DNA of 63,156 nucleotides, filler included, from Welwitschia mirabilis (lineage: Eukaryota): assembly GCA_051453625.1 (NCBI GenBank). It is 3 parts of one record of this genome, joined end to end, with 100 filler letters (N's around TTAATTAATTAA, not from the genome) between each part and the next. Parts side by side here need not be neighbours in the genome. Positions count along the whole stretch, not along the records: positions 1 to 16,734 come from JBOZIK010000001.1; positions 16,835 to 33,024 come from JBOZIK010000001.1; 1 more part is not named here. The stretch is one strand, 5' to 3'. Under the pieces are notes generated by a model that was not told the DNA's origin, did not search any database, and saw only the letters and a list, made by a program, of their open reading frames with translations. Shown in pieces: positions 611 through 33,124 of the stretch; position 1 is the stretch's first letter, and every line of letters begins with the position of its first letter. The translations under genes were made by a program, and so were the position numbers.

Positions 611-692
611 ATAACTTACTCGCATTAAGTTGCATTTCAAAGTATTTGGCTTATTTTGAGATCTTTCTCTAGGCTTTATAATACATTGCCTT

Positions 693-9600: not shown

Positions 9601-9672
9601 GCTTTCATTATCCTCTGAACTATGATTATGATGGAATCTTATAATTTATCATTTCAAGCGTTTAATAGCCGA
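6123..9672 (+). mobile_element. 3' LTR of the same element, interrupted at 9673 by an Athila-like insertion
   Basis: Follows the PPT and is homologous to 1-3632. Homology stops exactly where TGTTGC begins at 9673. Confidence 0.75.
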
Positions 9673-11318
9673 TGTTGCACTGCCAATTTATGGTTATTTG
9701 ATGGGTTTTATGAGTTGTTTTGCAGGAATTTTATATAGGTTTAGGTGTAATTCTAAGGATTTTGGAAATACAAGAATAGATCTCGGAAATGTATGATTAT
9801 TATTCAAAATTTATGCATTAAAGGCATTTTCTGATGAACAGAGCTTTCATGATAAAAATCATTAAAGAAGACCATCGTCCCCTCTGTCGTCCACACAATA
9901 GACAAGATGACGATTGCTAATATGGACGACTGATTCATCACTTTCAAAGATATTTTATAATGTTTTGTCATCCCCCATGTCATCCAGACGACAGCTTACT
10001 AACATGTAACTATTAATGATACATTCCATTAGCTGTTTCATCCATTTCTAAGACCTTAATGAACACGCCTAACTACACCTTCTGTCTGTCTTTTTCTATT
10101 ATATTTTCNNNNNNNNNNNNNNNNNNNNNNNNNNNNNNNNNNNNNNNNNNNNNNNNNNNNNNNNNNNNNNNNNNNNNNNNNNNNNNNNNNNNNNNNNNNN
10201 NNNNNNNNTGCTAATATGGACTACTAATTCATCACTTTCAAATATATTTTATAATGTTTTGTCATCCCCCATGTCATCCAGACGATAGCTTACTAACATG
10301 TAACTATTAATGACAGATTCCCTTAGCCGTTTCGTCCATTTCTAAGCCCTTAATGAATGCACCTAACTACACCTTCTGTCTGTCTTTTTCTATTGTATTT
10401 TCCTATAAATAAGTCCCCCTTCGACTCTCCATCTCATCTTCAATGCATCAGAGATTCTCGTGACAAGAAAGTAAAGGGTAGAAGATCTATCTTAAGTGTT
10501 GCAGAAAGATAAGCACTTGGTGGAGGGCTGAGTATCTTCCANNNNNNNNNNNNNNNNNNNNNNNNNNNNNNNNNNNNNNNNNNNNNNNNNNNNNNNNNNN
10601 NNNNNNNNNNNNNNNNNNNNNNNNNNNNNNNNNNNNNNNNNTCCATTAGCTGTTTCATCCATTTCTAAGACCTTAATGAACACGCCTAACTCCACCTTCT
10701 GTCTGTCTTTTTCTATTATATTTTCCTATAAATAAGTCCCCCTTCGACTCTCCATTTCATCTTTAATGCATCAGAGATTCTCGTGACAAGAAAGTAAAGA
10801 ATAGGAGATCTATCTTAAGTGTTGCAGAAAGATAAGCACTTGGCGGAGGGATGAGTATCTTTCATTGAGACCTTACTATTTCGTAACCTGAATATTGTTA
10901 CTCTTTAATATAAATCTTGGTTTTATTTTATGTTTGCATGTTAGGTTTTCTTATGTTTCTTATAGTCTAATGTTACCCTTGATCTGATGACAATTTCTTG
11001 GGTAATATAGATTATTAAGGGTAGCCTTTGTTAATGCTGCAAGTAAGTAGGTTTAGGGTCATTTTGCATTGCATGATAGTTTAGATTGCATATTGCACTT
11101 TGCATGGTATCTTTATCTACTTGCATTATTATTTACTTTTGGTCCCAAGTTTCAATTACAAAAGAAATCTGAGTCTCATACTCGCATACTTCAATGAGAT
11201 ACGATATTTTGAGTCACTCGCATTATACTAGTATGATGTATTATGCAAATATCTATTTTGATTATTAATAACAATATCTATTTGAATGTAAAAGCTTGCA
11301 CAAATACACACCGCAACA
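9673..11318 (+). mobile_element. 5' LTR of an Athila-like element
   Basis: TGTTGC...GCAACA inverted termini and a CCTATAAATAAG TATA motif (~10403, duplicated at ~10725). Length is inflated by gap-flanking duplications. Confidence 0.8.
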
Positions 11319-11340
11319 AATTGGCATCGTTTCTCAGGAA
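11319..11340 (+). promoter_or_regulatory. Athila-type PBS (tRNA-Asp-like, decayed)
   Basis: AATTGGCATCGTTTCTCAGGAA versus the Athila-type TTGGCGCCGTTGCCGGGGA, directly after the LTR-terminal CA. Confidence 0.65.
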
Positions 11341-12824
11341 GGCTATCAAGGAATACAAATGTTGTCATCATTCAGATAAGTATATTGACCTCTATTTATG
11401 TGGCATTATATTTTATTAGGAGCTTTAGGTTTTCTATGTGCTGTGTTTTAGTTTCGATTTTTTAGATTTAGGTTTTCTATAAAAAAGTGTGGTTGCCCCC
11501 TCTGATGTCCTCACGACAGTTAGGATGATAGTCTATTTTTNNNNNNNNNNNNNNNNNNNNNNNNNNNNNNNNNNNNNNNNNNNNNNNNNNNNNNNNNNNN
11601 NNNNNNNNNNNNNNNNNNNNNNNNNNNNNNNNNNNNNNNNATATGGCATTATATTTTATTATTAGCTTTAGGTTTTCTGTATACTGTGTTTTAGTTTTGG
11701 TTTTTTAGATTTAGGTTTTCTATAAAAAAGTGTGATTGTTCCCTTTGTTGTCCTCACGACAGTTAGGACAACAATCTATTTTTATCTTTGGTTTTATTTT
11801 TGGATTTGAATTTTTCCTACAATAAATTAGTTTCTGTCATCTTCTGTGACGTTCAGACGACTAGGTGAATGACAAGTCTATTTTCTATGTTTTCTACTTT
11901 TTGTTTTAGTTTCTGTTCTATTTCTATTTTTATATTTTTTGTGTGCGTTGTCCCCTCTGTCGTCCAGACGATAGATAGGATGTCAGTCTGTTATTTTTTT
12001 GATCTATTTTCTATTATTTACTATTTGTAGGATGCTNNNNNNNNNNNNNNNNNNNNNNNNNNNNNNNNNNNNNNNNNNNNNNNNNNNNNNNNNNNNNNNN
12101 NNNNNNNNNNNNNNNNNNNNNNNNNNNNNNNNNNNNNNNNNNNNNNNNNNNNNNNNNNNNNNNNNNNNNNNNNNNNNNNNNNNNNNNNNNNNNNNNNNNN
12201 NNNNNNNNNNNNNNNNNNNNNNNNNNNNNNNNNNNNNNNNNNNNNNNNNNNNNNNNNNNNNNNNNNNNNNNNNNNNNNNNNNNNNNNNNNNNNNNNNNNN
12301 NNNNNNNNNNNNNNNNNNNNNNNNNNNNNNNNNNNNNNNNNNNNNNNNNNNNNNNNNNNNNNNNNNNNNNNNNNNNNNNNNNNNNNNNNNNNNNNNNNNN
12401 NNNNNNNNNNNNNNNNNNNNNNNNNNNNNNNNNNNNNNNNNNNNNNNNNNNNNNNNNNNNNNNNNNNNNNNNNNNNNNNNNNNNNNNNNNNNNNNNNNNN
12501 NNNNNNNNNNNNNNNNNNNNNNNNNNNNNNNNNNNNNNNNNNNNNNNNNNNNNNNNNNNNNNNNNNNNNNNNNNNNNNNNNNNNNNNNNNNNNNNNNNNN
12601 NNNNNNNNNNNNNNNNNNNNNNNNNNNNNNNNNNNNNNNNNNNNNNNNNNNNNNNNNNNNNNNNNNNNNNNNNNNNNNNNNNNNNNNNNNNNNNNNNNNN
12701 NNNNNNNNNNNNNNNNNNNNNNNNNNNNNNNNNNNNNNNNNNNNNNNNNNNNNNNNNNNNNNNNNNNNNNNNNNNNNNNNNNNNNNNNNNNNNNNNNNNN
12801 NNNNNNNNNNNNNNNNNNNNNNNN

Positions 12825-14723
12825 ATTTAGATGATGGATGGATAAAATTAGAAGAACTTGTAAAGGTTAGTAAAACATGGTCAACACATAAAGAAAATCA
12901 AACAATGGGACAACTCATCAAGGACTTAAAAAGTGGTAGAAGACAACCCTACAAATTCTATGAGAGATTTTACAACAACCTTGGAAAAGTATACAAAAAT
13001 AATTTTAGATGCTAAAAATGCAACTGAAAGAAATGTTATGCAAACCTATGATTTATATAAGGACAACTATCATGTTACCAAAAATTGTCCTCTTGTGCCA
13101 ACTTATAAAGAAAGGATTTGTAAAGAAGTTTTTCCTTTAATTAATCATCTCAAAACTTTCGAAACCAAAATCAAGTACAATCTAGGTTGAACACATATTT
13201 TCAAAATAATCATCAAACTTTTAGAAACTGATTCGAAAATGCATACTACCCACCAAGTCCATCAATCTTTNNNNNNNNNNNNNNNNNNNNNNNNNNNNNN
13301 NNNNNNNNNNNNNNNNNNNNNNNNNNNNNNNNNNNNNNNNNNNNNNNCATTTTTTAACAAACAATATTAGCAAACCAAAGACCTTAAGGAGCTTTACCTA
13401 CACAACATTTACCTAACCCAAATGAATTTAGAAGAGATTGCAAGGTTGTGACAATAAGTGGATAAGAAACAAACCCTCCTCCATGTGAACCTTCCACCTC
13501 CCAAAACAATGAAGAAGAAGAGGAAGAGGACATTTATATTTTAGATGATTACAACTTCCCTTCTCTTGGCAATAAGAAAAAGAAAAATCCTTTTACTCCT
13601 TGTCTTGATAGGCTTAACAACAATTCAAATTTTACTGATCATTCAAAAGCATTAATGAAAAACATAAGCATAAACTTACCATTTTGGAAATTTTTAAAAA
13701 AAATCTAAGGTACTTAAAACTATGGAGAGATTTAATCAGAAGAAAATAAAAAAGAGTTATTCCTAGTAAAGTCTTTCTTACCCAATCCCTCATGAATTTA
13801 GTGTTACAAAAATCACCCAAATTTAAAGACTAGGAGCAGCAACAATAAATGTTATGATAGAGGAAAATAAAAATATAAGGAAAGCTTTGATTGACATTGG
13901 AGTGAGTGTTAACATTATGCTACTTTACATTTGTAAGAGGTTTGGTNNNNNNNNNNNNNNNNNNNNNNNNNNNNNNNNNNNNNNNNNNNNNNNNNNNNNN
14001 NNNNNNNNNNNNNNNNNNNNNNNNNNNNNNNNNNNNNNNNNNNNNNAAAGACTAGAAGCAGCAACAATAAATGTTACGATAGAGGAAAATAAAAATATAA
14101 GGAAAGCTTTGATTGACATTGGAGTGAGTGTTAACATTATGCCACTTTACATTTGTAAGAGGCTTGGTTTAGAGGATAAAATAGAGCCTACATCGGTTGT
14201 CCTAGAATTAGCAGATACTTCAGTTAGGAAACTGTTAGGCATCATCAAAAATTTAACAATACAAAGTGAAAAGGCTNNNNNNNNNNNNNNNNNNNNNNNN
14301 NNNNNNNNNNNNNNNNNNNNNNNNNNNNNNNNNNTTCTAGGTAGAGCCTTTTGTGCAATAGCCCACTGCATTATTGATACAAGAGTAGAAACTATGAAAT
14401 GTCATTTTGGAAATAGAACTTTTACAATTAGAGTCTTTGATGCAACTGAGAAAGATTTGGGTAATTATGATATGAATATTAAAGATAATATCAAACCTAC
14501 TTTATTTTTACAACATCATCCACTTAAAGAAAGAGAGATGAAATTAAATGAGCCTATGCTTTGTGATGATCAACTTAAGAATGAAGAAGAAAAGAAACTT
14601 TTTGAGTGTAAGGAAGTTCAACCTTTTAAGAAAAATCATGAGGGATATTGTCCATTTCATAAGTCAAAAATTAAAAATAATAATTGGAATTTAAAAAAGA
14701 AAAAATGTTTTCCAAAAACTTAA
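12825..14723 (+). pseudogene. Athila-like gag-aspartic protease remnant
   Basis: KALIDIGVSVNIMPLYICKRLGL...LELADTSVRK...LGRAFCAIAHCIID matches the Athila protease pattern ALxDLGASINLMP...LQLAD...LGRPFLAT. Upstream gag motifs include WIKLEELVKVSKTW and HVTKNCP. Confidence 0.85.
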
Positions 14724-16734
14724 AGGTAAAACTCTAGCATTTAATGAAAATCTTTCACCGGAGTTACCTTTTCTCTCCATTGACTTCTAAAATCTATACT
14801 TTAATATGGCCTCATAAAGTGCTCTTCATTACTCCTCTCTCCATCTAATTGATTTTACATAAAAATAATTGGTGAATTTCTAGTTTGGAGCATACTTCTC
14901 TGAAAAATTTGGGACCAAAACAGATCCTTAGTTTTTCCTTCTTTCTTTTTCAATAAAAGTGTGCTTTAAATTTAGGATTTGAATAAAAGTTTGCTTACCT
15001 TGAAATTTTCTTTTCAGTTTTCTGTTTTGAGAGTCTCTATTTTTATTTTTCTGTTTTCTATTTTTATTTCTCTCTATTTTCTATTTCTGCAAAAATAATT
15101 AGCCGCCTTTTATGTTGTCCCCATGATAAGATGGACGATAGTTGCTTTTGATAGTTTTTTAGCTTTTTTGTTAATTTTTAATGTTCTATTTTTTTTCTTG
15201 CCTTGGTCGTCCTCTCTGTTGTCTGAACAACGAGTNNNNNNNNNNNNNNNNNNNNNNNNNNNNNNNNNNNNNNNNNNNNNNNNNNNNNNNNNNNNNNNNN
15301 NNNNNNNNNNNNNNNNNNNNNNNNNNNNNNNNNNNNNNNNNNNNNNNNNNNNNNNNNNNNNNNNNNNNNNNNNNNNNNNNNNNNNNNNNNNNNNNNNNNN
15401 NNNNNNNNNNNNNNNNNNNNNNNNNNNNNNNNNNNNNNNNNNNNNNNNNNNNNNNNNNNNNNNNNNNNNNNNNNNNNNNNNNNNNNNNNNNNNNNNNNNN
15501 NNNNNNNNNNNNNNNNNNNNNNNNNNNNNNNNNNNNNNNNNNNNNNNNNNNNNNNNNNNNNNNNNNNNNNNNNNNNNNNNNNNNNNNNNNNNNNTTTCTA
15601 TTTTTGCAAAAATAATTAGTCATCTTCTATGTTGTCCCCATAATAAGATGGACGATAGTTGCTTTTGATAGTTTTTTAGCTTTTCTGTTAATTTTTTATG
15701 TTCTGTTTTTTTTTTCTTCCTTGGTCGTCCTTTCTGTTTTCTGAACAACGAGTAGGATGACAGTTAATAAAATGTTGATTTTTGCTTTGTGTTATTTTAA
15801 GAAAATGCATTTTTATGGCTCTGTTGGGATTTCTGACTTGACTGCTTGAGAATTACAGGAAGTAAATGGGCGAAAAAAATTTTGAATTCATGAGAAAACC
15901 ATCTGAATTTTTTCTTAGCTTTTTCCTTTGAAATATTATTATGGCATTACTTAATCATATTCCAAACTTGAGTTATGTATTTATTGCCATGACTAGTCTT
16001 TTGACTTGGGCATTTCAGTGATAAGATTGGATTCATCCAATCTTAGAACATTTACAAGTTCATAAACTTTAATTGAAGAAAGATGCTTTATGTTTTATGT
16101 TTTTTTTAATGGTGAAAGGGTCTTAGATTATTTCAGAGTGTTCTTTTCTGTCTTAATCTTTGACTTTTACCTTTTTCTTTTGAAATGTTTAATCATGTGG
16201 AATGTTGTTTTTATTTGTTTAAAAAAAAAAGTGGAATAAAGCCCATGATGTTTTATATTTATATCTAAAAAACATGGTCATGATGATGTCCTACTGTAAG
16301 TACACNNNNNNNNNNNNNNNNNNNNNNNNNNNNNNNNNNNNNNNNNNNNNNNNNNNNNNNNNNNNNNNNNNNNNNNNNNNNNNNNNNNNNNNNNNNNNNN
16401 NNNNNGTCTTAATCTTTGACTTTTACCTTTGTATTTTGAAATGTTTAATCATGTGGAATGTTGTTTTTATTTGTTTAAAAAAAAAAAGTGGAATAAAGAC
16501 CATGATGTTTTATATTTATATCTCAAAAACATGGTCACCATGATGTCCTACTGTAAGTACACTAGGCAAATATTTCCGAGAGGAGCCTTTGACAGTGTAA
16601 TATGGTAGCTATGGGAGCTTCACTGGGAGGTCAGTTGGTCATGCTTTATAGGTCTTTACTTCTCTGATAGTGGTTGCACTCCCCTCATCATGGATAATAA
16701 AATTATATTTAAAACTTTGAGGCTATGGCATTAG

Positions 16735-16834
16735 NNNNNNNNNNNNNNNNNNNNNNNNNNNNNNNNNNNNNNNNNNNNTTAATTAATTAANNNNNNNNNN
16801 NNNNNNNNNNNNNNNNNNNNNNNNNNNNNNNNNN
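16735..16834. other. Assembly linker: 44 N + TTAATTAATTAA + 44 N
   Basis: A six-frame stop spacer centred in a 100-bp gap; an identical construct is at 33025-33124. Confidence 0.9.
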
Positions 16835-17832
16835 ATCATTTATTGTTTTAAGCACTTGATCTTTGTTGTCGTTACAATCACTGCCTTTTTAAGTGAAACT
16901 TTATGGAGTCAATATATCTTGGTATGCATTTTTACTCAAGTGGCTTTATGATATCTTCCAAAGGGGTTTGCTAAGTTAGAATTTAGGAAAGGTAAGCTAT
17001 CTTCTTCATGTTCCTTATGTTTATTTTCATTCTGTTTTTCTTTGGTCCTTTAGTTTATTATTTCAAAGTCATTTTCGTAATTTCTCATCCTCACCTAGAA
17101 CCCTATCATTCAATAGTTTTCTTATTATTATTCATGTCATTTCTTTCAAATAATAGTTGATTTTCTTTTATCATATTTAATTCTTCATTATTTTTATGAG
17201 TTTCCTTTAAGTCTATTGGAGTTCTACATATTTTTAGGAATATGTATCAATTTGGGTACATTTGCTAGTCTTCTTTATTAGGTTTTAACCTACTTAGTAT
17301 GTTTTCATCATCCTATTTTTTATTTATTTTGGGTTTTTCTCATCATCATGATTTGTCATGACTCTTCATCATTCCCTCTTTTTTAAAGATTTCTGATACA
17401 TTTTGATACCTTCATGATGATATCTAAGCCTAATTTGCTTGGCTAACATTTTTATTTTAAATAATGTTTTCAAAGTTCTGTCGTCCACCTAGTTGTTCAG
17501 ACGACATTGGAGATGACACCAAGATTTTTTCTGATAGTCTTCTTAGGGCTGTTATCCGGACAACGCGATCAGATGACAGTGTGATAAAACCATGGCATCC
17601 ATTTTTTTCCTTATTTTTGTTCCATTCTTTGTCATTTCTGCCCATTTTCTTGATAAACAAAAGTGCCTCTAATCCCTATTGATGTGTTGGAGCTTGTTCC
17701 CACTAAATTTATCCACTAGATTTCCATATTTAAGTGAATTTTCAAAAATGAGGTATATTTTTTTCTTCCCTTTTTTTTCCAACTTTTTTTTCCATTTCTC
17801 AGCTTTTTAACACGTAGTTTCCATGTATGTTA

Positions 17833-19886
17833 TGAAGAGGTAATGGTATACCATTAAGGTCACAACTAATAAAATTCAAAGTATGTTTTGCAAATCATTT
17901 TGCAAATTCTTCATTTATCCTTAATGTNNNNNNNNNNNNNNNNNNNNNNNNNNNNNNNNNNNNNNNNNNNNNNNNNNNNNNNNNNNNNNNNNNNNNNNNN
18001 NNNNNNNNNNNNNNNNNNNNNNNNNNNATCATTTTGCAAAATTCTTCATTTATACTTAATGTTTATGATGCATATGATTGAAATATTTACAAAATCTTGG
18101 TAAGGGTAAAATGCTATTCTTATATTTAAATTCTAGAATAACTCAAGAATAATTTTTGGCAAGTTAATTTTTTTAAAGAAATTAGGGTTTCAGTACATTC
18201 ATAATGTCTCATAAGAAAGAAAGCAAAGTCTAAAAGTATAATTGACATAAACAAGAAATGTGGGAAAACCCTTACAAATAAGGAAAACCATGGTAGTACC
18301 TATCATTATCATCCTGGACTAGCTATTTTCCATGACATATTAAGAGGATGGAAATGTTGTGATGTGCATGTTAAGGAGCTTGATGAGTTTTTTAGAAATA
18401 GCTCCATGTAATAAGGATGGACACAATGCAAATCCAGGATCTTGATATCAAACTTGGTATCTAAACATGCGTGTCTTTTATTCCAAAAGGAGTGAAAAAA
18501 ACATAGTTCATGGAAATTGACATCGTGCTAAATTTTCTACTGCCTTTCCTGACTTGCTAAATGGTGTTTTTAACTGCATGTATTTAACGGTTACCGGCTG
18601 GTTCTCTGACAACGATAAACGCATATTTTCTTCTTTTCCAAAGCTAAGAATTTCCATCTCACAAGGACCTTCATGCATGCTCTAGAAATTCAGCTTCTAT
18701 GGGCCTCCTTTGGAAGTACTTTAATGCAAAGTATAAATAGAGCACGTTAACGAGGATCTGGTCCTGTCAGATATTCAGGTGTAGCAGGGAAAAAAAAGAA
18801 TTGCAGTACTAGGGTTTCCGACGCAAAAACATGTAGCGGTTTCGAAGAATTGTTGATGAGAAGAGTTCAGACTTCTGTGTTGTAAGGATCTTGTCTGAAA
18901 GTGATTCCAAACATGCACAGCACCTTTTCTTGTGCCAGATCTAGAGTCATTCAGCATCGAAGACAATAGATTTTTTAATTTGATTTTGGTTTTAAAGACT
19001 CAGGTGCAAGAGCAGGCGCAGGTACAGAAGCAGACCAATCTGAATTTGATTTTTTATTTGGCAATGCTTTCTCAAAAAATTCTGGAGTAAAAACAAAAGA
19101 GAAGAGCAAGAAGAAAAAGCACGTCTTCTCGTAGTTATAGATCATAATGACTGTATATCCAACGTCTGATCTGTAGACTTGCTGATCAAAAATCTGAAAT
19201 AGATTCTGATAAGACTCTATCACAGAAGAACAGGACATCAAGTAAAATCTCATTTCCTTTAAAGCCAGCATCCTTCAAAACGAAATGACAGGTCTATAAA
19301 ATCTTACCAAAGCCTTATCCTTACCAAATTAAACTTTAGATAATCTATTTAAGAAACATGTTCGCTCAGTAAACTATGTGGGATGAAAAGGAAGCTCCAC
19401 TTTATCTGTTTTGATCTGATTCTTGAAAAGAGCAGCTAATGCTCTGACCATGCCCAGTTCTAGTACCATTGCATAACATACAACAATATCTAGAAAGCAC
19501 AGATTTAACTCAAGATCTTGCTTTACATCTACATCAAATTCTGCTGCAGAACAAATTCATCTCAAGCATCTACAACAAATTCAGAAGCTACATAGATCCA
19601 TATTTTACCTTTTTGTTCAATCAATTTGTATAAACTTTAGTTAAGAAAGATTAGTGTCAGAAACAGAATTAAAAGTTTTGTTATATGTAGTCATTTAATT
19701 TCTACTATGATTTTTCCAAGTTTTCATTAGAAAGACAAAATAATTAGGCAGTGCTCATATGTATTTAAATTACATGCCAAATTGAAAATAAGAACAGTTT
19801 TGTTTTTAAGAAACTATTATCATACACTCTCATAAAATATGAGAATTTGAATTTTGATGAATATTTTTGGATTTCTTAAACTTTCA
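17833..19886. mobile_element. Solo LTR inserted into the Athila-like spacer
   Basis: TGAA...TTCA termini and a perfect 5-bp TSD TGTTA (17828-17832 and 19887-19891). The flanks join seamlessly in the sister copy at ~31490. Confidence 0.85.
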
Positions 19887-20354
19887 TGTTATTTAGTTTT
19901 TCAAGCTCTTCGATTAGAAACTTACAGATCTAATTTTCGCCACATATTTTGAAAGTTATGATGAATTATGTGTTTTATAAGATAGAATTAGGTTTTTAAC
20001 TTTAAAATTCATTTTCTCATAAACTATAAGTCAAAACTAGTGGTCCTTTAGGGTAAATTAATCAATACGACATGCTCTATATTTTTAGTGGATTAGATTT
20101 TCATTTGAGAACTTTTATTTTTCACCTTATGTGGCGCCCACCTAAAATAGAATTTTCAACTTTTCACGCATTTCAAGTTTTTCTTCACACAACTAGGTAA
20201 TACAGGATGTATTGACACTTTTAGAGATGGGGTAGGACATATTTTCACAATTTTTACACATTTTTAAACCAATTTCGAGGTTGTTTCGAGCATTCATGCG
20301 ATGTATTTTAGCTATATCCACCACATCTTGCATAACATATTTCATATTTATGAT

Positions 20355-22258
20355 TGAGTCCGCCACGTACTCATAGAACTAGACAGGCTAAGGTTAAGGC
20401 CAAAGCTGTTAAGTAGGAGGTGTGCCCACTAGAACCACTAGAGGTTAAGTGTGTAGAGTCGGTACATCCCCCATCTCAACATGTTAGATCTCTCACTATT
20501 CAGATGGCTATTATTCACGTTGAGAGATACTTCAAGGATTTTATGAGATGATTAGAGCCAGAGGTAGATCAAAAGCTCATAGACTTACAAATCTAGTGGA
20601 TCTTAGATGCATAGGGGATGTACTATGTATCTGAGACTAGGGAATTCTATAACATCATACACATAGAGTGATGCAACCAGTACTCCATCCAACCCAAAAT
20701 GCCAAGGCACTTTGGTGGTAGGGCACTTTTGCTTATATTTACCACTTCCATTCTTTTTCCAATTCATGGGGGATTATTCACCATTACCTTTCCATCTCCT
20801 CTGGCTTAACACAATTCACCATCACTTTGCCATCTCCTTTGGCTTAACACAATTCACCATCACTTTTGTCATCTCCTCTAGTTTAACATAATTCACCATC
20901 ACTTTTGCCATATCTTCTGGCTTAACACTTTGTCGCCTCTTATGAATTTCTTGTGGGCACTCTTGCATCAACTAGTCCACCTTAAAATTGAGCTCATCCT
21001 CGAGCTCCACATACCAGTGATCTTTTGGCTCTGATACTAATTAATGTAACCAGTACCCCATCCAACCTAAAATACCAAGGCACTTTGGTGGTAGGGCACG
21101 TTTGCTTATATTTACCACTTTAATTCTTCTCCCAATCCATGTGGGATTATTCACCATCACTTTGCCATCTCCTATGGCTTAACACAATTTACCATCACTT
21201 TGTCATCTCCTCTGGCTTAACACAATTCACCATCACTTTTTCCATCTCCTCTGGCTTAACTCAATTCACCATTACTTTTGCCATCTCCTCTGGCTTAACA
21301 CTTTGTCGCCTCCTATGACTTTCTTATGGGCACTCCTACATCATATAGCATCACCCTAATTCCTGTGGACATCTAGTAGATATGATTATAGACATGATTT
21401 GGGGCCATGAGATTTCTATCCTTCCAATCCACATTACAGCAGTGACAAATTTTGATAGTATTGGGAGTTTTCATATACATTCAGCTGGTGGAATGAAGGA
21501 GCACTATATGTATAATGCAGCATTAGATATAGTAGCAGATTTGATATTAGGTAAGTGAGGTGTTTTGATAACACAGTTGACTTCTACCTATCGAATTTTG
21601 CACAAAGGGCTAATTCACAACATCAGCTCATCTCTTCATGATAGTCATGTAATGATGATCCACTCACAGATAGTGGTATTTTTCAGGTAAGGTCAGCAAA
21701 TGAACTTACCCACATTTATATGGAGGGAGACTCTGGTTGATAGTAAAGGCATGATAGCTTTAGATTCTAGGATATTCATGCTTCCTCTTGGTCATGTTTA
21801 GATGCTTCAATATATCAGATCCTGTAGTCGAGTAGTGATTCATGCACATACAGACTTCAGCTCATTACTTACAGGACATGGGCATACAAGTACCAGGAGA
21901 GGCAGAGAGACCTCAAGTTCAGAGACCTGTGGTTGGTGCTTCACTCAAGCAGATTTAGGCCTTCTTAGCAGAGAGCACTAAGACCCTCAGAGGCATTATA
22001 GGCTGAGGCATCTTTACATTAGAGTAAAGGATTCAAACGGTTGAGAAAAGAGTACATCACACTAAGGAGTATCTAGTGGATGTGTAACAGCACGTCATAT
22101 GGATAGAGCACAGTGTGATAATGGATCTTCCAAAGACAGTGGAAGTATAGGAAGACAAGATGGCATAGACTATCATGACATCACTTGACCACCATTTCCC
22201 TATAGATCCTAAGCATCCTCCCTCTTCTACTCTTGCACCTGAGCCTGCCGCCCACTAG
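20355..22258 (+). pseudogene. Accessory 3' ('env-like') ORF of the Athila-like element, ~400 aa, interrupted by a TRIM
   Basis: The frame reads ...WILDA*GMYYVSETREFYNIIHIE|HHPNSCGHLVDMII...LTSTYRILHKGLIHNISSSLHDSHV...MNLPTFIWRE and the ORF ends in a Pro-rich tail. The frame is restored when the TRIM plus TSD is removed. Homologous to ORF 30483-30800. Confidence 0.75.
20669..21343 (-). mobile_element. TRIM (terminal-repeat retrotransposon in miniature), 675 bp
   Basis: 302-bp LTRs at 20669-20970 and 21042-21343. The 71-bp interior has a minus-strand Met-PBS (GCTCTGATACTA) and PPT-like TTTTAAGGTGGACTAGT. TSD TAGAG/TATAG (one mismatch). Confidence 0.9.
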
Positions 22259-22340
22259 CAATTCATCATGACTCGACAATGGGAGTGATTTCTCATTGTA
22301 TTTTTGTATCTTCCCCTCCATGTATTATTAAAAATTCTTA

Positions 22341-22357
<17 letters not shown>

Positions 22358-22371
<14 letters not shown>

Positions 22372-22574
22372 TACATCTTATTTTCAATATCAGCATGGTG
22401 TATATTTTTATTGATTTTATGCGTACTTTTACATACCATTTTTACACTTCATGATAAGGACTATTTGTACACACACATACATCTTATTTTCAATATCAGC
22501 ATGGTGTATATTTTTATTGATTTTATGCGTACCTTTACATACCATTTTTACACTTCATGATAAGGACTATTTGT
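22358..22574. repeat. ~106-110 bp near-perfect tandem duplication next to a (TA)n(CA)n microsatellite
   Basis: ACACACACATACATCTTATTTTC...GATAAGGACTATTTGTA occurs twice with about one mismatch. Confidence 0.85.
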
Positions 22575-23639
22575 ATTATTCATGATTATATTTTATCTAC
22601 TATACATTTCAATGGGAATCTATTAATTGTTAGAGTATTTAATGTCTATATTTCTGAAAAAGTTTTCATAGACTTCTATTTTTCAAGATCCATTTTTGAG
22701 CCTATCGTCCCCTACATCGTCTGGATGACAACCGGGACTATAGTACGGCCAATTGTACTACACAGGTCAAATGTTTAGTTATCTATTTTTGATTTTTTCA
22801 TCCTACATTCTGAGATTCCTGAAAATCTTTTTGGGTTTGTTTCATAGTTTCTTAGTTGATTTATTATTAGATAATTTGGCTTATAGTCGTGGTTGTTTGC
22901 CTGGTTTTATTAGGAACTAATAAGACTAAGTTGGGAGTAAAATCTATCAATTACATAATACAAAGAAGAAAATATTTATTTATAATATAGTACACCTATC
23001 ACGTTTACTAAGAATCTAAATGAGTAAATAAGATGTAAAATATATTATTTTGTTCTCTTGAAACGTCCAATTTAGTAGTTTTATCATGTGATTTTAATTC
23101 CTCACATAATGGGATTATCTAATTTTAAATGTTTAGATATATTTTTTCATAAAAACCTTTTAACATAATTTTTATTATTTTCATTGTAAATTATAAAGAT
23201 TACAAACTAAAGTTAATTTTAAAATGACATCTTATTTAATAAGAAACTTAAATAAAGATAATTATTCTTTTGACTAAAAGCTTAATATACTTATTATTCA
23301 AGTAATTAAGGTTTATAAAATATAGGATATGACATTACCATCCTTGAATAGGATGTGAACACTACCTATATTTCATATTAGACTTTAAAACTGACCAATT
23401 TAATAATTTTTATCATGTAATAATCAATTTAGGCCCCTTGTGTTAGAATCTATCTCCTTCACATTAAGAAATTTTAAATAAAGTACCTTTGTTTTTTTCT
23501 TTCTCATGCATGTAGGTTTTCACTGGTAAGCAGGGGTTTATTGGTTATCATACTTTGTCATTTAGATAGATCACTCGATTTTTGGGCTTGATTTCTTTTC
23601 GTTGCGACTATACCTCTCCATAGTAACATTTTATCTCTT

Positions 23640-25620: not shown

Positions 25621-26049
25621 TGTTATTTTTTGTACAGCATTACCTTTAGCATGATTCATTTCTTTTTATAGACGGGATTATTGGCAGACTGTTATTTTGA
25701 TAAGGAGAACCATGAGAATGAGAAACTTTACATATAATATTAGAAGAAAAAGATCCTTGAAGTTAAATTGAGCTTTAGTAAAAATGAGATCCTTATTAAG
25801 TGTATCAAAAGTCATACTATTTGATTCCTTACTGTAATGTAGTGACATAATATAACTATGCAAAGTGGATTCTTCTAATCAACAGTGAATCAAGTTGACA
25901 TAATTCATGTAAACATATTTTTGTGAATTAATATCCCCTACCTTTACCTTAATTTCTTGCACTTATGAAATCCTTTATCTTATCTTTCCCTTCTCTTAAT
26001 ATAAACTATTCATGCAAGTTATGATGTTAGGGAGTTCTACATCATTTTT

Positions 26050-26920
26050 GAAATAGAATGTCTCCTTTAAAGTACAAAATTATTGTACCTGGTTTTGGTC
26101 TAGTCAACCAACTTCTTATTTGATAGGCAATAGATTTTTACATAATTTTTATTAATTTCTCATTAATATCTTATCAAGAAACTTCTTAAGTCTGATCTAA
26201 AAAGGTATATAACCATTTTTTAAGAATATTCTATCTTTTTTTGAATAATTTTTACACCTATGTAGAATCTAGTCAATCTAAGATTAGAAATCTTGAATGA
26301 CTTATTTAAGGTAATTTTGTTCTTTTTACATCTTCTTTGTTACTTTTATTCATCAGCATATCATCTACATGTACCACTATATACATAGATTTGTGTCTAT
26401 CAGATTTATGAATAATGTGACATCCACATCTCGATAATCATATAATCTAAATCCAAGGAACTTAAATAATTTACAAGCTTAGTGTACCAAGTTTTAAGTG
26501 CTCATTTTAGCCCATTTAGAGAGTGAATCAATCCATATAATGTATATTCTTTATTTTTTCTTCAAACCCCTTTGGTTGCATCATGTACATTTCTTCTTTT
26601 AAGTATCCATGGAGAAAGGTAGTCTTTATGTCTAATTGATGAAGTTTCCACCCTTTTTGTGCTACAGAGGCAGTCACTATTCTGATGCTAGCCCATTTTT
26701 CTATTAGAGTGAAGACTTTATTATAATCAAGTCTTTTCTTCTATCGTAGGCCTATAGTAATAAGTCAAGATTTATGTTGCTTTAGAATATTATCTGCATT
26801 ATATTTGAAGAGGGGAAAATTCCATTTTTTTAGGTAATGTTATGCACTATAATGAAAGGTCTACCAATTTCTAAGTATCATTTTTTGGTATTCTTCTTAG
26901 ATGGCTTTTATCTTATGATC
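26050..26920 (-). pseudogene. Ty1/copia reverse transcriptase remnant
   Basis: KNDT*KLVDL, LDYNKVFT..KWASIR, GWKLHQLDIKTTFLHG..MYMMQPKG and YIVVHVDDML (YVDD motif). Confidence 0.85.
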
Positions 26921-27078
26921 GTGTTAAAGGACATTCTTGAATTAATTTGATTCACCATTAAAGATCAAGTGAAGCTCATCATTATTATTAGCATGAGATG
27001 TATGTTGCCCCTGTCTAGTTCTAGTTTGACCCTTTTCATCATTACAAACATCTTAGAGATTATACTAATTAAGTAATT

Positions 27079-28105
27079 TGTTACGGTACGTATTTATGCA
27101 ACATTATGTCTTGAGTAGAATCCTATCAATGACAAATATCATGCATAAACATAACACACTAATATAGACGGGAGTAACCCGAATGTGGTAATCCATCAAA
27201 GGTCAAAGCAGGAAATAAAAAAGTTACTTTTCACAAGGAAAATACTTGCACTCTAGCTACAAGAAATAACTTGCAATGCATGAAAGTAAAATATAACACA
27301 CTCATGCAAAGCTAATCTAGGAAAAGTAAATAACAATGAACCTAAACTAAACTAACTATACACAACCCTGATAAAAGTTACCCTCATAACCTATATTACT
27401 AATCACGAACCACATCCATGTTATAAAGTAGCCTCACCCTAATGGAATAAATGCCACCCAACACAAAGGAGAATGTCTTTCTGTAACTATAAGAATGAAT
27501 CTCTAGCTTTTTAATCTCCTGTCACAAGAATTGCAAGTGCAAACGAAGACAAGCAAGAGTTAAGGACGAGATCACTATTTATTAACTCACACTCATACAA
27601 GAACACAGACAAAAATGCACGAGTAAAATCATAATGACTACACTAAGGAAAAACAGATACACATGTGGCAAAATTTAGGTGAATGTTTAGTATAGATGTT
27701 ATAACAGTGTCATCTATCTAGCCATCCGGATGATAGAGAAGACGATGCCACCCCATAAGATATCCACATCAGCTACCAGATTGGTTATAGTCAGCATCCC
27801 GTTAACATGAACTATTTGGTTATCTGTCCAAGTTGTTTAGACGATGACATGGATGATGGCCTTTTACAAATCTTTAATCAGTGCATTAGCCTCAACGTTT
27901 TACAAGAAATTGTCTTAGGAATGTAAAGTATTCAAAATTGCTTAAAATGCTATAAATCATCATGGAGATTGCATGTCTTTATCTCTTTCATCTCAGCTCT
28001 CCATTATCATAGAAATCATTACATAAATCAAGAATTTACCTATCTATAAACCTATAAAACCACTTAAAATACCTTATTAAATATGTACAAGTTGATGACG
28101 TAACA
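27079..28105 (-). mobile_element. 3' LTR of a second Athila-family copy
   Basis: TGTTAC...GTAACA termini similar to the reverse complement of the 9673-11318 ends; minus-strand purine tract GGGAGTGGTAAGGCTAAGTGGAGGACTA is adjacent at ~28106-28133. Confidence 0.8.
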
Positions 28106-29042
28106 TAGTCCTCCACTTAGCCTTACCACTCCCTAATAAAACCAGGTGGTAAACTATGTTCACGAACCAACTTATTAGACAATAAAACAGCTAGGATACT
28201 TAAGGAAATCATCTTAGAAAGATTTTTAGATTTTACAAAGATACATATTAAATTTTAAAAAATTAGAAAAAGTAAACATTTCACTTACTAGAAGCTCAAC
28301 CAGTTGGTTGTTTGGGTAGTCATCAGGACGACGAAGGGAATGATAGGCTCAAAAAAGGTTTTTGAAAACTAAAATCTATGACAAAATTTTTGTTTTTATA
28401 GATAATTAGAAAATGTAACAGAATAGCCCCCCATTAATTTAAGAAATAATGAATGAAAAATTGTCTAGGTAAAATAAATCCTCATCATAACCTGTAAAAA
28501 ATTAAAAGATAGACATGAAAAATCAGATTCAAATTAGTACATCATGCTAGAAAAATAAAGTGTCTATAAAATATCAAAAGATAGTTTTCAGTATAAAAGA
28601 TGTATATAAGGGGAGATACAAAATAATAATACAAAATCAATTCCCTCATCTATGCATGATAAACTATGGTTTGATAGCTTGCTCAGGAGCAGGGGAAGAA
28701 TAAGAAGGATGCTCAGGGTCTGTGGGGAAACAGAGGTTCAAAGATGTGGAAATCTATTTGATCGTCTCATCATCCTTGACATGTACAACCTCAGAAATGT
28801 CTACTATTACACTCTGCTAAATGGAAATGATACACTGGCGCATGTCAATGATATGATCCTCAGAGTGTTTGAGTCTCCTCTCAATAAATAGGATCCTCTA
28901 CTCAAAGGTTTACTATTTTTGATCAAGTACTTATGTCCTTTGATCGAGAGCCCAGATCCTTTAATGTAGTGATTAGATACCTCTATTAATGAAACCTCTA
29001 ATGGTATCAGTGGTCTCAGCCAGGAGAGTCTGTATCTACTTG
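28106..29042 (-). mobile_element. PPT, 3' UTR and C-terminus of the accessory ORF of the second Athila-family copy
   Basis: Diverged homologue of 29159-30115 and of ~21960-22940 (reverse complement). Confidence 0.75.
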
Positions 29043-29142
29043 NNNNNNNNNNNNNNNNNNNNNNNNNNNNNNNNNNNNNNNNNNNNNNNNNNNNNNNNNN
29101 NNNNNNNNNNNNNNNNNNNNNNNNNNNNNNNNNNNNNNNNNN

Positions 29143-32100
29143 AGTTGGCAGCATAACATAGCCATCTACTTAGCCTTATTAGTCCTTGATAAAACCAGGT
29201 AGTAAACCATGTTTGCAAGCTAACTTATTAGACAATAAAACAACTAGGAATCTTGAGATAATTATCTCAGAAAGATTTGCAGAAATTATAGAGATACAAA
29301 CTAAATTTTGAAAAATCAGAAAAACTAAATAAACATCTACCAAGAACTTGGTTAATTAATCACCCAAGTCATCCTCCAGATGATGAAGGGGACAATAAGC
29401 TCAAAACAGATTTTTGAAAACTGGAACCTCCGATAGAATTTTTATTTTTATAGATAATTAGAAAACATAATAAACACCTCCCCACTAAATTAAGTGATAA
29501 TGAATGAAAAATTAATCAAGTAAAAGAAAAATAGATCCTCATCATGACATGTAAAAATCAAAAGATAATCATGAAAAATTAGATACAATGAATACACTAT
29601 GCTGGAAAAATAATATATCTATATAAATATTAGAAGAGAGTCTTTCAGTACAAAAATGTATAGAAGGGGAGATACAAAATATCAATACAAAATCAATTTC
29701 CTTGTCTATCCATGATGAACTGTGGCTTAGAAGCTGGCTTAGGAGCAAGGAAAGAAGAAAGAGAATGCTTAGGATTCATAGGGAAATGGACGTATAAAGA
29801 TGTAGAAATGGATCTGATTGTCTCATTACCCTAGACATGAACTGCCTTAGGAATGTCTTCAGTTACACTCTTTGAATGGAAACAACACACTGACGCATGT
29901 CAATCATTAAGTCCTTAGTGTGCTATACTCTCCTCTCAATAGATAAGATCCTATGCTCAAATGTCTGCTATCTCTGATCAAGAGTCTGTGTCCTTTGGTT
30001 GAGTACTATGTCTTCTGATAAATAGCCTAGATACTTCGATCAAGTATGTAGATACCTTTGTCCATGAAATCTCTAATATTATTAGTGGTCTCAGCTAGGA
30101 GAGCTTAAATCTACTCAAGAGTAGCTCTAACCATAGGTCTCTATACCTAAGGTCCATCTGCCTCTCTTGGAACTTGTATACCCATGTCCTGTAGATAGCA
30201 AGCTGAGATCTGAATGTGTAATAAATGCTACTCGCTCATGGGCTCTAGTATCCCAAATTATCTACAGAATGCTAATAGGATGCATGAATAACCAAGTATC
30301 TAAAGCTGTCATGCCTCTACCAAGGAACTAAGTCTCCTTTAGATAAAATGTAAGAAGGTCCATCTACTCCTCCTATCTAAAAGATGCAAATATTTGTAAT
30401 TGTACTACCATGGTGTGACTATCGTGGAAAGATGGACTGATATTATGGATCAGCCCTCTGTGTCAAAATCTGTATGCAGGGATTATCTGAGTAACCCTCT
30501 GTCGATCAGTAGCAAAATTAGCTGAAATATCCAAAATGACACCATATGCTGGCACTTCTCAGTCCCACTAGCTAAGTGAATGTTCATACTTCCAAGCCCA
30601 TCAAGATCTATGATAATTGCAATATGGAATGGGAGAATAGCTATCTCATGGTCCCATATGAATGCAATGATCATGTCCTGTAGCTGACCACAAGCATCAG
30701 GTTGCCTCTTAATATGCATGATGTCGTAGAACTCTCTCATCTCTAACACGTAGTATGACTCATACGCATCTATAATCCATCTGAGCCATAAATTAGTCAA
30801 TATCTAGTCTATGTAAGGCTCAATACAACTCATGAAATCACGAAATTGATGCTCAACATGTATACTAGCTGTCTGAATGGCCATGAAACGTTCATGTCAA
30901 GGTGGTGGATATGCAGGCTTTGCACACTCTATCTGTGGCTCAACTATAGGGCCTATCTCCTACTCTACTACCTCGGCTTAAGCCTTAGACTATCTAGCTC
31001 TATGCATACGAGGCCTACTTAATCAGAAACATAAAAAACGTCATGTAAAAATAGAAAGACATGGCAAAAACATCACATGGATGTGCAATAACGACCCCTA
31101 AAAATTGATGACAATAAAAAAAATACTAAAAATATGTCCTACTCCCCTCCACCAAAAGTTGCAATGCATCCTTAATTACCTAAACATGTGAATAAAAATG
31201 AGAAATACACAAACAATTCTAAAACTGTAATTGTAGTGGGACCCATATAAAGTGAAAATTTGAAGTGCTCAAATAAAAAAATCTAATCTAGTAGAGTCGT
31301 AGAACATATTGAACTTATCAATTTTTCCTAAAGGACCACTTTGTTTTGACCTACGATTTAGAAAATGAGTTGGAAACATAGAAATATAAAAATACTTTGT
31401 AAAACATACAAATTCTTATAACTCAAAAAATATGTAATGAAATTCAAATTCATAGGCCCAAATCAAAGAGCACGAAAAACTAACCGATATACATGGAAAC
31501 TACATATGGAAAGGCTGAAAAATGGGAGGAAAAAAATCAAAAATAGGAGGAGAGATAAACATACCTCATTTTTGAAAATCTACTGAGATCTAGTGAATCT
31601 AGACATAAAATTAGGTGAGACAAGTTCTAGAACGCTGGTACATGCCAAAGGGATCATCGTTTGAGCCGCAGTTTTATCACACTATTATCTGGTTACGTCA
31701 TCCAAACGACAGCCCTAGGATGACTCTCAGAGAAAAATCACATTGTCGTCTTCCAATATCATCTTAACGACCAAGTGGATGATAACCCTTTAAAAGATTT
31801 TCAGAAAGAAAAATGTCAGTCAGAAAGCTTAGGCTCAAATATGATTGTATCAGTTCTAAACAAGCAAAAAAAAACTTAAAAAGATAAAAAGAACTAGACA
31901 GAAAACCAAGAAAATTGAGAGAAAAAGGACAAACTCTCAAGAAAGGAAAAACTATGGCTGAAGAAAACAGACTATCTAGGCTGAAACCTATAAGAAAAAC
32001 TACATAAACATGCTCGAATAGAAAAGATAATCATGATAAACGCAGAACTCCATAAGCTACTAGGCAACTTATAAAAATAGGAAACAAAAAGATGTTCTTT

Positions 32101-33024: not shown

Positions 33025-33124
33025 NNNNNNNNNNNNNNNNNNNNNNNNNNNNNNNNNNNNNNNNNNNNTTAATTAATTAANNNNNNNNNNNNNNNNNNNN
33101 NNNNNNNNNNNNNNNNNNNNNNNN
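33025..33124. other. Assembly linker: 44 N + TTAATTAATTAA + 44 N
   Basis: Same construct as 16735-16834; the sequences on either side are unrelated. Confidence 0.9.

Follow-up and report, generated by a model that had tools for sequence, protein, structure and literature searches.

A GC- and CpG-rich compound palindrome, specific to one retrotransposon family, was found in a 63,156-nucleotide stretch of Welwitschia mirabilis DNA (hereafter, the window). Its four GTCGTCC units form a direct pair at 12-bp spacing and, beyond a central CCGG, the mirror image of that pair. Judging from its sequence signatures, the host is an old and degenerate Ty3/gypsy LTR retrotransposon with an Athila-type (Ogre/Tat/Athila group) primer binding site (PBS), and the window holds two copies of it in opposite orientation. 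Similar repeat modules have been reported from other plant retrotransposons. I tentatively favor the reading that it is a reiterated cis-acting DNA module of the Athila-type element and a candidate site for a sequence-specific protein, likely a host factor.

Sequence, geometry, and distribution of the module

The initial annotation gave a 40-bp pattern of four heptamers and ten sites. The recurrent fixed geometry was found at every one of these coordinates, but the literal pattern was not. A pattern search of the window gave no match with three or fewer mismatches, and the ten sites have, in order, 7, 8, 6, 5, 8, 7, 4, 6, 8, and 9 mismatches at the 28 specified positions. The 40-bp pattern is an inferred ancestral consensus, and the module is real only in a degenerate-consensus form. 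The unit conserved among the copies is GTCGTCC instead of the annotated TGTCGTC, with CCGG at the center. Nor are the ten sites independent; the modules at 11491 and 15101 have duplicates flanking assembly gaps, and that at 28306 is a paralogue of that at 22703.

The exact heptamer occurs six times on both strands, versus 0.95 expected. The 40-bp pattern was then scored with tolerance for transitions, with 100 dinucleotide-preserving shuffles as the control. Twelve sites score 22 or more, versus none in the 100 shuffles, and 16 sites score 20 or more, versus a shuffle mean of 0.21. The distances between units are also sharply peaked: 12 bp in 9 of the 12 same-strand pairs within 40 bp, and 7, 19, or 31 bp in 31 of the 38 opposite-strand pairs. 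A chance resemblance, or an artefact of reading degenerate AT-rich sequence, would agree with the lack of any site within three mismatches and with the presence of four assembly duplicates among the loci. It is effectively refuted by the shuffles and the distance peaks, and module positions are moreover conserved between the element copies, which leaves it with hardly any probability.

The modules are CpG-rich in a CpG-poor background, as had been annotated; their observed/expected ratio is 0.84 with 4.5 CpG per 100 bp, versus 0.26 and 0.65 for the 9.7-32 kb around them. The heptamers are better conserved across copies than the spacers, both in relative entropy (1.01 versus 0.59), where equal conservation had been named as an argument against a cis-site, and at the purine/pyrimidine level (0.93 versus 0.80). 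The annotation had the spacers varying freely, which they do not: they are pyrimidine-rich on the left and purine-rich on the right in mirror symmetry.

A profile scan (nhmmer) revealed 20 module loci, all inside 9.87-31.8 kb. Scanning 1-9.8 kb and 32-63 kb gave no module even at E<=10, and no profile locus lies in the remaining ~39.6 kb of non-N window sequence. Inside the window, the modules are confined to the two elements; no relatives turned up outside this single window. Four of the 20 loci are duplicates beside assembly gaps, and six lie in the second, inverted element copy at positions homologous to those in the first. The annotated occurrence in the LTR, leader, and internal non-coding DNA was borne out. 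The coding remnant of this family covers only ~1.7 kb of the window, where 1-1.6 modules are expected by density, too few for their absence there to count statistically. Modules in different contexts are homologous only across the module itself, as are 9877-9909 and 11950-11982 (33 bp), and the modules of the U3 and 3′ regions have no flank homology to the array units.

Two copies of the host element

The features of element 1 are as follows (modules without strand):

9790..11318, plus strand: 5′ LTR (LTR1), ~910 bp minus two gap-flank duplications
9873..9912: distal U3 module of LTR1 (score 24; nhmmer E 5.9e-8; aligns with 27860-27819 in LTR2)
9966..10005: proximal U3 module of LTR1 (right outer unit decayed; score and profile)
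10404..10411, plus strand: TATA box of LTR1, TATAAATA (direct reading; duplicate at 10727-10734)
11322..11334, plus strand: PBS, TGGCATCGTTTCT (9 of 13 positions match the Athila tRNA-Asp/Asn PBS)
11426..12036, plus strand: leader array (units of about 101-111 bp, T-rich spacer plus module; ends in a 788-N gap)
11491-11530, 11734-11773, 11835-11874, 11946-11985: leader array modules (score and profile)
12827..14500, plus strand: gag and aspartic protease remnants (translation; zinc-knuckle remnant near 13.05 kb)
14990..15765, plus strand: second T-rich module array (61-65% homologous to the leader array)
15101-15140, 15203-15235: second-array modules, the latter cut by a gap (score and profile)
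15618-15657, 15723-15762: gap-flank duplicates in the second array (15618 duplicates 15101)
17479..17518: 3′ non-coding module (best pattern match, 4 mismatches; paralogue 31744-31785)
17536..17578: spacing-variant module (spacers of 7 and 6 bp, central CCGG intact; paralogue 31683-31727)
22703..22742: 3′ non-coding module (score and profile; paralogues 29358-29397 and 28306-28345)

Those of the inverted element 2 are:

27079..27973, minus strand: 3′ LTR (LTR2), by homology to LTR1
27708..27747: proximal U3 module of LTR2, 124 bp 5′ of a TATA-like box (27584-27576)
27819..27860: distal U3 module of LTR2 (degenerate; nhmmer E 0.0019; aligns with 9873)
28306..28345: 3′ region module (inside the tandem duplicate 28101-29040 ~ 29154-30115)
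29358..29397: degenerate module, paralogue of 22703 (score 21; nhmmer E 0.016)
31683-31727, 31744-31785: two degenerate modules, paralogues of 17536 and 17479

The anatomy comprises a TATA box, an LTR terminus, an AAT spacer, and a PBS, with the second LTR on the minus strand. The end of LTR1 is well defined by the terminus CAACA followed by AAT and the PBS, and its putative start at 9790 was placed by alignment to LTR2. The part from the TATA box to the end matches 27614-27075 on the minus strand. A purine-rich tract (28002-27974; 24 purines of 29) comes before LTR2, which no PBS follows. The assignment to an Athila-like family is supported: the 5′ junction is similar to the Athila signature in the literature, and the gypsy superfamily is indicated by relatives of the gag/protease remnants. 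Of the four PBS mismatches to the 13-position reference, which was taken from the ATHILAfinder preprint, three are transitions. The Pfam gag-asp_protease match is weak (E 8.8e-4), and a protein library gave 3720 proteins at E<=0.001; the ten of these that were domain-scanned have gag, protease, RT, RNase H, or integrase domains. No RT or integrase was found 3′ of the remnants.

Each element has two U3 modules about 105-235 bp 5′ of the TATA box, a leader array directly past the PBS with ~65-bp T-rich spacers between the modules, another such array beyond the protease, and three further modules in the 3′ non-coding region. The U3 modules hold their position 5′ of the TATA box, while the LTRs are otherwise only ~51-62% alike. 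Assembly duplicates were recognized at 10260-10299, a copy of the 9966 module lying 105 bp 5′ of the TATA box within a 93% identical duplication (9915-10108 = 10209-10402), and at 11734-11773, a copy of 11491. The leader units 11426-11540 and 11886-11995 have 70.7% homology. The nhmmer match of the spacing-variant module at 17536 is weak (E 0.07-0.1).

Decay of the modules and their possible roles

Between paralogous copies, transitions are about twice as frequent in the modules as in the flanks (19.4% versus 11.0%), whereas transversions and gaps are rarer (16.5% versus 24.9%; odds ratio 0.60, p=6e-4); alignment anchoring and slippage in the T-rich flanks could account for part of the latter difference. 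Overall identity is 0.642 in modules and 0.643 in flanks, and thus gives no clear indication of constraint.

This equality would be expected of a functionless by-product, in which tandem duplication or abnormal strand transfers amplified a palindrome-bearing ~105-bp unit that hitch-hiked in the family's non-coding DNA. The leader and 15-kb arrays do consist of homologous ~105-bp units that are 61-71% alike, and covariation is absent. According to two reports on such elements (PMC11963269, PMC7004042), the Ogre/Tat/Athila group commonly bears family-specific tandem arrays of unknown function, and abnormal strand transfers during reverse transcription have been proposed as the origin of the Ogre/Tat hypervariable arrays. 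However, the by-product reading does not agree with the modules in the U3 and 3′ regions that lack array-unit flanks, the position kept 5′ of the TATA box in two strongly diverged LTRs, the conservation of heptamers above spacers, or the scarcity of transversions and gaps in modules. It is possible but doubtful.

Alternatively, the modules may be hairpins in the genomic RNA, for packaging or dimerisation at the leader or as templates of small RNAs that trigger silencing. Every module lies inside the predicted transcript (R-U5-leader through U3-R), a location compatible with an RNA role, and the leader array is directly 3′ of the PBS. Sirevirus palindromes are described as hairpin-forming siRNA hotspots and were proposed to be hairpin templates for silencing small RNAs (PMC4728375). 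Five of 11 copies fold at z -2.0 to -3.2 relative to shuffles (lowest -3.17), but the other six are within about 1.5 sd. Spacer co-variation had been suggested as the check for an RNA stem; within-copy pairing of the arms is not above between-copy pairing in the spacers (0.26 versus 0.36) or in the heptamers (0.62 versus 0.63; permutation p at least 0.6 for both) in these decayed copies. With G-U pairs allowed, 137 of 209 pairs form in the sense and 138 of 209 in the antisense direction, with no strand preference. Because all copies are dead and decayed, tests of covariation and strand are of low power, and neutral decay of one ancestral palindrome predicts the same outcome. The conservation of heptamers above spacers and the absent arm covariation suggest a better fit to a DNA site than to an RNA stem, which the decayed copies keep from being decisive. 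An RNA element is rather unlikely.

The annotation had also proposed a two-part system, in which an oligomeric protein, possibly from the element's own 3′ ORF (an antisense ORF would be another source), recognizes the modules as operator-like sites and has a regulatory or VANC-like anti-silencing role. The four-unit dyad geometry would suit a dimer of dimers, and Retand arrays were reported often to accompany antisense ORFs with a probably DNA-binding TRP28 domain (PMC11963269). Nevertheless, no accessory ORF or domain was detectable in either element copy: the only Pfam matches among 282 ORF fragments (140 of at least 55 aa, 142 of 33-54 aa) were to gag-protease, Copia, and host genes, and a comparison of the paralogous 3′ regions did not reveal robust codon periodicity (best of 10 segments p=0.008, lost on correction). 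The family's 3′ ORF product thus found no support as the partner. Moreover, the transition excess of the modules is a methylated-cytosine signature, so the copies were not kept unmethylated, unlike the VANC-like prediction, and the anti-silencing role fares no better. A two-part system is very unlikely.

I return to the favored reading of a DNA site. In the active family, the module most likely worked as double-stranded DNA that offered repeated binding sites to a sequence-specific protein, dimeric or tetrameric and probably supplied by the host, to the benefit of the LTR promoter. A role of this kind may be paralleled by Sirevirus LTR palindromes and, in the leader of Drosophila gypsy, by the cluster of Su(Hw) sites. 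Tandem duplication of ~105-bp units would have spread the module within the arrays. After silencing, the module cytosines would have been methylated and then decayed by deamination, which may be why no intact module copy is present in the window.

Comparison with known systems

Bousios and colleagues reportedly described palindrome arrays in Sirevirus LTRs in 2010. The comparison with these arrays, already drawn in the initial annotation, is apt. In Sireviruses (Ty1/copia, SIRE lineage), palindromes occur both 5′ of the TATA box and internally (Bousios et al. 2016, PMC4728375). As far as that account describes them, both are short, family-specific, and GC-rich relative to their surroundings, with proximal pairs in U3 5′ of a conserved TATA box and extra copies in the internal non-coding region. 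Both have arms conserved above the center, are hairpin-prone, and are presumed to be cis-regulatory. In contrast, the Welwitschia host is of the gypsy type with an Asp/Asn-type PBS, and the module differs in sequence from the Sirevirus palindrome, published as CACCGGACtGTCCGGTG. Its palindrome is compound, with four units phased at 12 bp over 40 bp, and the module also occurs in leader arrays of ~105-bp period with T-rich spacers.

In Ogre/Tat/Retand elements, the internal non-coding DNA contains hypervariable tandem arrays (Vondrak et al. 2020, PMC7004042; Retand survey 2025, PMC11963269). As with the leader and 15-kb arrays, their short tandem units are specific to a family and lie in the untranslated regions of gypsy elements other than chromoviruses. 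However, the Welwitschia units are too diverged for Tandem Repeats Finder, and what is conserved in them is a palindrome, single copies of which also lie in U3 and elsewhere without unit flanks. The arrays described in those reports are mostly in the 3′ UTR, while one Welwitschia array is in the 5′ leader.

The 5′ UTR of Drosophila gypsy has 12 Su(Hw) sites in AT-rich sequence, the cluster known as the gypsy insulator (PMC2374998). There too, conserved short sites with variable AT-rich spacing lie in a gypsy-type leader, and they are bound by a host protein. On the other hand, the element is from an animal, its sequence is unrelated, and its sites are described as 12-bp non-palindromic motifs within 340 bp. 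Binding is proven in Drosophila and predicted for the Welwitschia module.

VANDAL is a DNA transposon whose encoded VANC protein binds motif arrays and causes loss of methylation. It shares with the present family the dispersal of short motifs through the non-coding DNA of one transposon family. It differs in that neither Welwitschia copy has a detectable encoded partner and that the decay pattern points to methylation.

Finally, the Short Interrupted Repeat Cassettes (SIRC) of Arabidopsis are a descriptive class of mostly non-palindromic 10-29 bp repeats (PMC10342631). Compared by description, SIRC resemble the Welwitschia modules in being short repeats with dissimilar spacers between them that are missed by standard repeat finders, and they were reported to be frequent within mobile elements, including ATHILA.

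A degenerate palindrome and its distribution

The initial annotation had proposed a 40-bp palindrome at ten places, made of two TGTCGTC heptamers followed by two GACGACA heptamers at a fixed spacing. As written, this pattern has no match in the window at up to 3 mismatches, and the ten sites have 4 to 9 mismatches over the 28 specified positions. Counting both strands, there are 6 exact heptamers, compared with 0.95 expected. When the pattern was scored with a transition as half a match, against 100 dinucleotide-preserving shuffles, 12 sites scored at least 22 (0 in 100 shuffles) and 16 sites at least 20 (shuffle mean, 0.21). Recurrent sites at these places are thus real and derive, with decay, from a single ancestral sequence; C>T or G>A changes make up 47 of the 76 mismatches seen in 11 non-redundant copies. 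The alignment-refined unit is GTCGTCC, and the centre is CCGG, frequently decayed to CCAG or CTGG. Same-strand units are spaced by 12 bp in 9 of 12 close pairs, while 31 of 38 opposite-strand pairs are spaced by 7, 19, or 31 bp. The CpG richness noted earlier was borne out (46% GC and a CpG o/e of 0.84 in the modules, compared with 32% and 0.26 in the surrounding 9.7-32 kb).

A profile built from 11 module copies found 20 loci at E<=0.1, all within 9871-31785, and no further module in the rest of the window even at E<=10. Eleven of these loci match by construction, 4 are duplicates or partners at assembly gaps, and 5 are weak variants that had already been noted. Ten module positions lie in one plus-strand element (element 1) and 6 more at homologous places in a second, inverted element (element 2). 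The module is real, decayed, and within the window restricted to two copies of one gypsy-type family, for whose annotation it may serve as a signature. Metagenome contigs scanned with an intact four-unit core and with a three-unit core gave 0 loci each.

The features of the two elements and of the assembly gaps are as follows.

9790..11318, + strand: LTR1 of element 1
10404, + strand: TATA box TATAAATA of LTR1, from direct reading of 9.0-12.0 kb
11318, + strand: terminus CAACA of LTR1, then the spacer AAT, then the PBS TGGCATCGTTTCT
11426..12036, + strand: leader array directly after the PBS, in units of 101-111 bp (T-rich spacer plus module), ending in a 788-N gap
12827..14500, + strand: gag and protease remnants
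14990..15765, + strand: second array (15.0-15.8 kb), after the protease, 61-65% identical to the leader array
17479, 17536, and 22703: modules in the 3′ non-coding region, all three with counterparts in the inverted copy
27079..27973, - strand: LTR2 of element 2
9915-10402, 10319-10864, 11398-11783, 13825-14168, 15078-15753, and 16150-16562: gap-flanking repeats found by self-comparison
10260 (of 9966), 11734 (of 11491), 15618 (of 15101), and 15723 (of the gap-truncated 15203): gap duplicates of modules

Self-comparison revealed that the sequence before six N gaps recurs directly after the gap with 88-97% identity. The six repeats, which inflate repeat counts locally, are probably overlapping contig ends (allelic or paralogous) that were left unmerged. 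Read in this way, four of the profile loci would be second copies of neighbouring sites. Self-comparison also showed inverted paralogy between 16.6-22.9 kb and 33.0-29.2 kb (67-80% identity), and a second occurrence of 28.1-29.0 kb at 29.15-30.1 kb. The stretches 16735-16834 and 33025-33124 are alike (44 N, TTAATTAATTAA, and 44 N), an artificial contig-joining linker, and lie at corresponding points of two inverted paralogous blocks.

Each of the two LTRs has two modules in U3. The proximal module lies 105 bp upstream of the TATA box in LTR1 (with the gap duplication removed) and 124 bp upstream in LTR2; the distal module is about 100 bp further upstream, and together they span 105-235 bp upstream of the TATA box. 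The roughly 105-bp units of the leader and post-protease arrays are 61-71% alike. This periodicity emerged only from sensitive self-BLAST, and Tandem Repeats Finder reported no array at the module clusters, a reminder that standard tandem-repeat finders miss such arrays. Across contexts, only the module itself is homologous (e.g., 33 bp between 9877-9909 and 11950-11982). The modules are indeed absent from the coding remnants, as had been observed, although this has little meaning because only about 1.7 kb of family coding remnant is present, in which 1 to 1.6 modules are expected by density. The possibility of a MITE or foldback insertion was rejected; the flanks have neither target-site duplications nor terminal repeats beyond the palindrome itself, and the array flanks belong to the repeating unit.

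The host element and its neighbourhood

Is the host an Athila-like element, as the initial annotation claimed? In element 1, remnants of a gag zinc knuckle and a protease lie downstream of the PBS. For the latter, a search of the protein library gave 3720 relatives (E<=0.001; about 30% identity), and each of the ten scanned with Pfam has at least one Ty3/gypsy-type domain among Retrotrans_gag, Asp_protease_2, RVT_1, RT_RNaseH, and integrase. The LTRs, the PBS, and the order of gag before an aspartic protease with gypsy polyprotein relatives are the features of a Ty3/gypsy element, and the gypsy-type assignment is well supported. From its TATA box to its end, LTR1 aligns with 27614-27075 (minus strand) at about 60%. 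LTR2 has a purine-rich tract ahead of it (24 of 29 residues are purines) and no PBS after it; therefore, LTR2 is the 3′ LTR of the inverted copy, and 16.6-22.9 kb is paralogous to the 3′ internal region of that copy.

It is the 5′ junction only that suggests the Athila lineage. In Athila, according to the ATHILAfinder preprint, 3-6 bp of AT-rich spacer separate the LTR terminus from a tRNA-Asp/Asn PBS, TGGCGCCGTTGCC. The spacer AAT agrees with this description. The PBS equals the Athila signature at 9 of 13 positions and differs by 3 transitions and 1 transversion, which is more than the published seeds allow, and such a match seems plausible after decay. The protease, whose relatives are only about 30% identical, speaks for gypsy without establishing the Athila lineage. 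Placement in the Athila clade uses RT, RNase H, and integrase domains (Neumann et al. 2019), and a Pfam search of the ORF fragments of the window found no remnant of these three in either copy; the protease was the only domain found in the element. The Athila ORF-1 domain, present in 16% of Athila elements (Neumann et al. 2019), and an env-like extra ORF were likewise not found by Pfam in 282 ORF fragments, which is weak evidence since the copies are degenerate.

The neighbourhood contains further repeats and gene-like fragments.

6-3629 and 7593-9669: repeat of about 2.1 kb, 71-78% alike, from a different element without modules; it ends about 120 bp before the inferred start of the module-bearing LTR (9790)
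17829-19892: segment of about 2 kb in the plus-strand copy of the element 3′ region, absent from the inverted paralogue, with an exon-like ORF carrying a CHORD domain (18205-18408, + strand, Pfam E 3.9e-13); possibly a gene fragment that the retrotransposon captured or that was inserted into it
20776-20928 and 21149-21301: blocks of a 39-bp tandem repeat, 373 bp apart, in the element 3′ region, its most GC-rich part (39%)
22363-22575: 106-bp unit repeated twice with 99% identity
24126-24311 and 26531-26740, - strand: Ty1/copia remnants between the module-bearing elements (an integrase SH3-like domain and RVT_2), with a strand order that misfits a single intact element
33239-33454, + strand: exon-like ORF with a DnaJ domain (Pfam E 3.6e-11), just past the inverted element
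33.8-37.4, 43.3-46.8, and 48.5-52.3 kb: three copies of another repeat family of about 3-4 kb, 60-89% alike, without modules
39769-40011, - strand: RVT_1 fragment near the three-copy family

Candidate roles of the module

Because every copy in the window is dead, the following tests of conservation, covariation, folding, and substitution are weak. The heptamers are kept better than the spacers, as had been claimed (relative entropy, 1.01 vs. 0.59; purine/pyrimidine conservation, 0.93 vs. 0.80), while the spacers do not vary freely; the left spacer is pyrimidine-rich and the right one is purine-rich. The modules had also been suggested to be RNA hairpins. Fold z-scores of the 11 copies range from +0.27 to -3.17, and 5 of them are at or below about -2, as a hairpin would predict. 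On the other hand, the arms do not co-vary; heptamer pairing is 0.62 within a copy and 0.63 between copies, spacer pairing is 0.26 and 0.36, and the permutation p for the arms is 0.63 to 0.99. With G-U pairs allowed, sense and antisense pairing are equal (137 and 138 of 209). A role as an RNA hairpin is thus considered unlikely.

A comparison of the paralogous copies bears on whether the modules ever had a role. Identity is 0.642 in the modules and 0.643 in the flanks, as expected if the modules were functionless by-products of duplication. However, the two kinds of difference are distributed unequally: transitions amount to 19.4% in the modules and 11.0% in the flanks (p=5e-5), while transversions plus gaps are fewer in the modules (16.5% vs. 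24.9%; odds ratio, 0.60; p=6e-4), a contrast to which slippage within the T-rich flanks and the anchoring of the alignment may contribute. This pattern may be read as cytosine methylation and deamination acting on an otherwise somewhat protected sequence. I regard the by-product explanation as rather improbable, but less so than the hairpin.

The initial annotation had proposed an accessory protein, possibly the product of a 3′ ORF of the element, as the partner binding the modules. No extra ORF was recognised in either 3′ region (Pfam, 282 ORF fragments). Among 140 fragments of at least 55 aa across the window, the module-bearing element gave no family except the weak protease match, and 142 fragments of 33-54 aa from its coding and 3′ regions gave one sub-threshold chance match only. 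The mismatches between the two paralogous 3′ regions showed no robust three-base periodicity (1 of 10 segments had p=0.008, uncorrected). In the VANC/VANDAL-type anti-silencing pair, an element-encoded protein binds the motif, and the motifs lose DNA methylation; no accessory ORF or domain was found in these two copies. Moreover, the transition excess argues for long-term methylation, rather than shielding, of the modules in these dead copies, and it is silent on active copies. An element-encoded partner is very improbable. The more specific version, in which a dimer-of-dimers protein, encoded on an extra or antisense ORF lost here, binds the four-unit palindrome cooperatively as a composite operator, is equally a long shot. 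If true, an LTR retrotransposon would possess a two-part system like VANC, acting in regulation or anti-silencing, and its sites would lie in U3, the leader, and the 3′ UTR.

Tentatively, and at less than even probability, I propose as the most likely former role that a host factor recognised the modules as repeated sites in double-stranded DNA, within the LTR promoter and the leader. Among known plant transcription-factor motifs, the TGTC core bears a resemblance to auxin-response elements, but its spacing does not fit theirs. If the module were a protein-binding site, it would provide a defined 40-bp probe for the factor driving or silencing an Athila-type family.

Comparison with known systems

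A limited literature search on palindromic modules in Athila found no paper describing the present module, which does not prove absence. Reiterated host-factor sites are known from the Drosophila gypsy leader, which has 12 of them within AT-rich sequence (PMC2374998). Family-specific tandem arrays, whose function is unknown, are common in non-coding internal regions of Ogre/Tat/Retand elements, as described in PMC7004042 and PMC11963269, and in the latter, a survey of Retand elements, the arrays often coexist with antisense ORFs probably binding DNA. Like the arrays of the Ogre/Tat/Athila group, those found here consist of family-specific tandem units (101-111 bp) in untranslated internal regions, namely the leader and the region after the protease.

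The closest parallel is the palindromes of Sirevirus LTRs, to which the modules had already been compared. According to Bousios et al. 2016 (PMC4728375), the Sirevirus palindrome is family-specific, is found in proximal pairs that precede the LTR TATA box, and recurs close to the envelope-like gene; this GC-rich sequence tends to form hairpins, is better conserved in the arms than at the centre, and is presumed to have a cis-regulatory role and to be an siRNA hotspot. The comparison holds for the arrangement, with U3 pairs upstream of the TATA box in both LTRs and more copies in the leader and the 3′ region. In contrast, the Sirevirus host is a SIRE element (Ty1/copia) and its consensus is CACCGGACtGTCCGGTG, while the protease here is gypsy-type, the PBS resembles the Asp/Asn type, and the module sequence is another. 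If the module were a protein-binding site, gypsy-type plant retrotransposons would use reiterated palindromic cis-modules as Sireviruses do. As seen in the window, it is a decayed, family-specific repeat of an already described kind.
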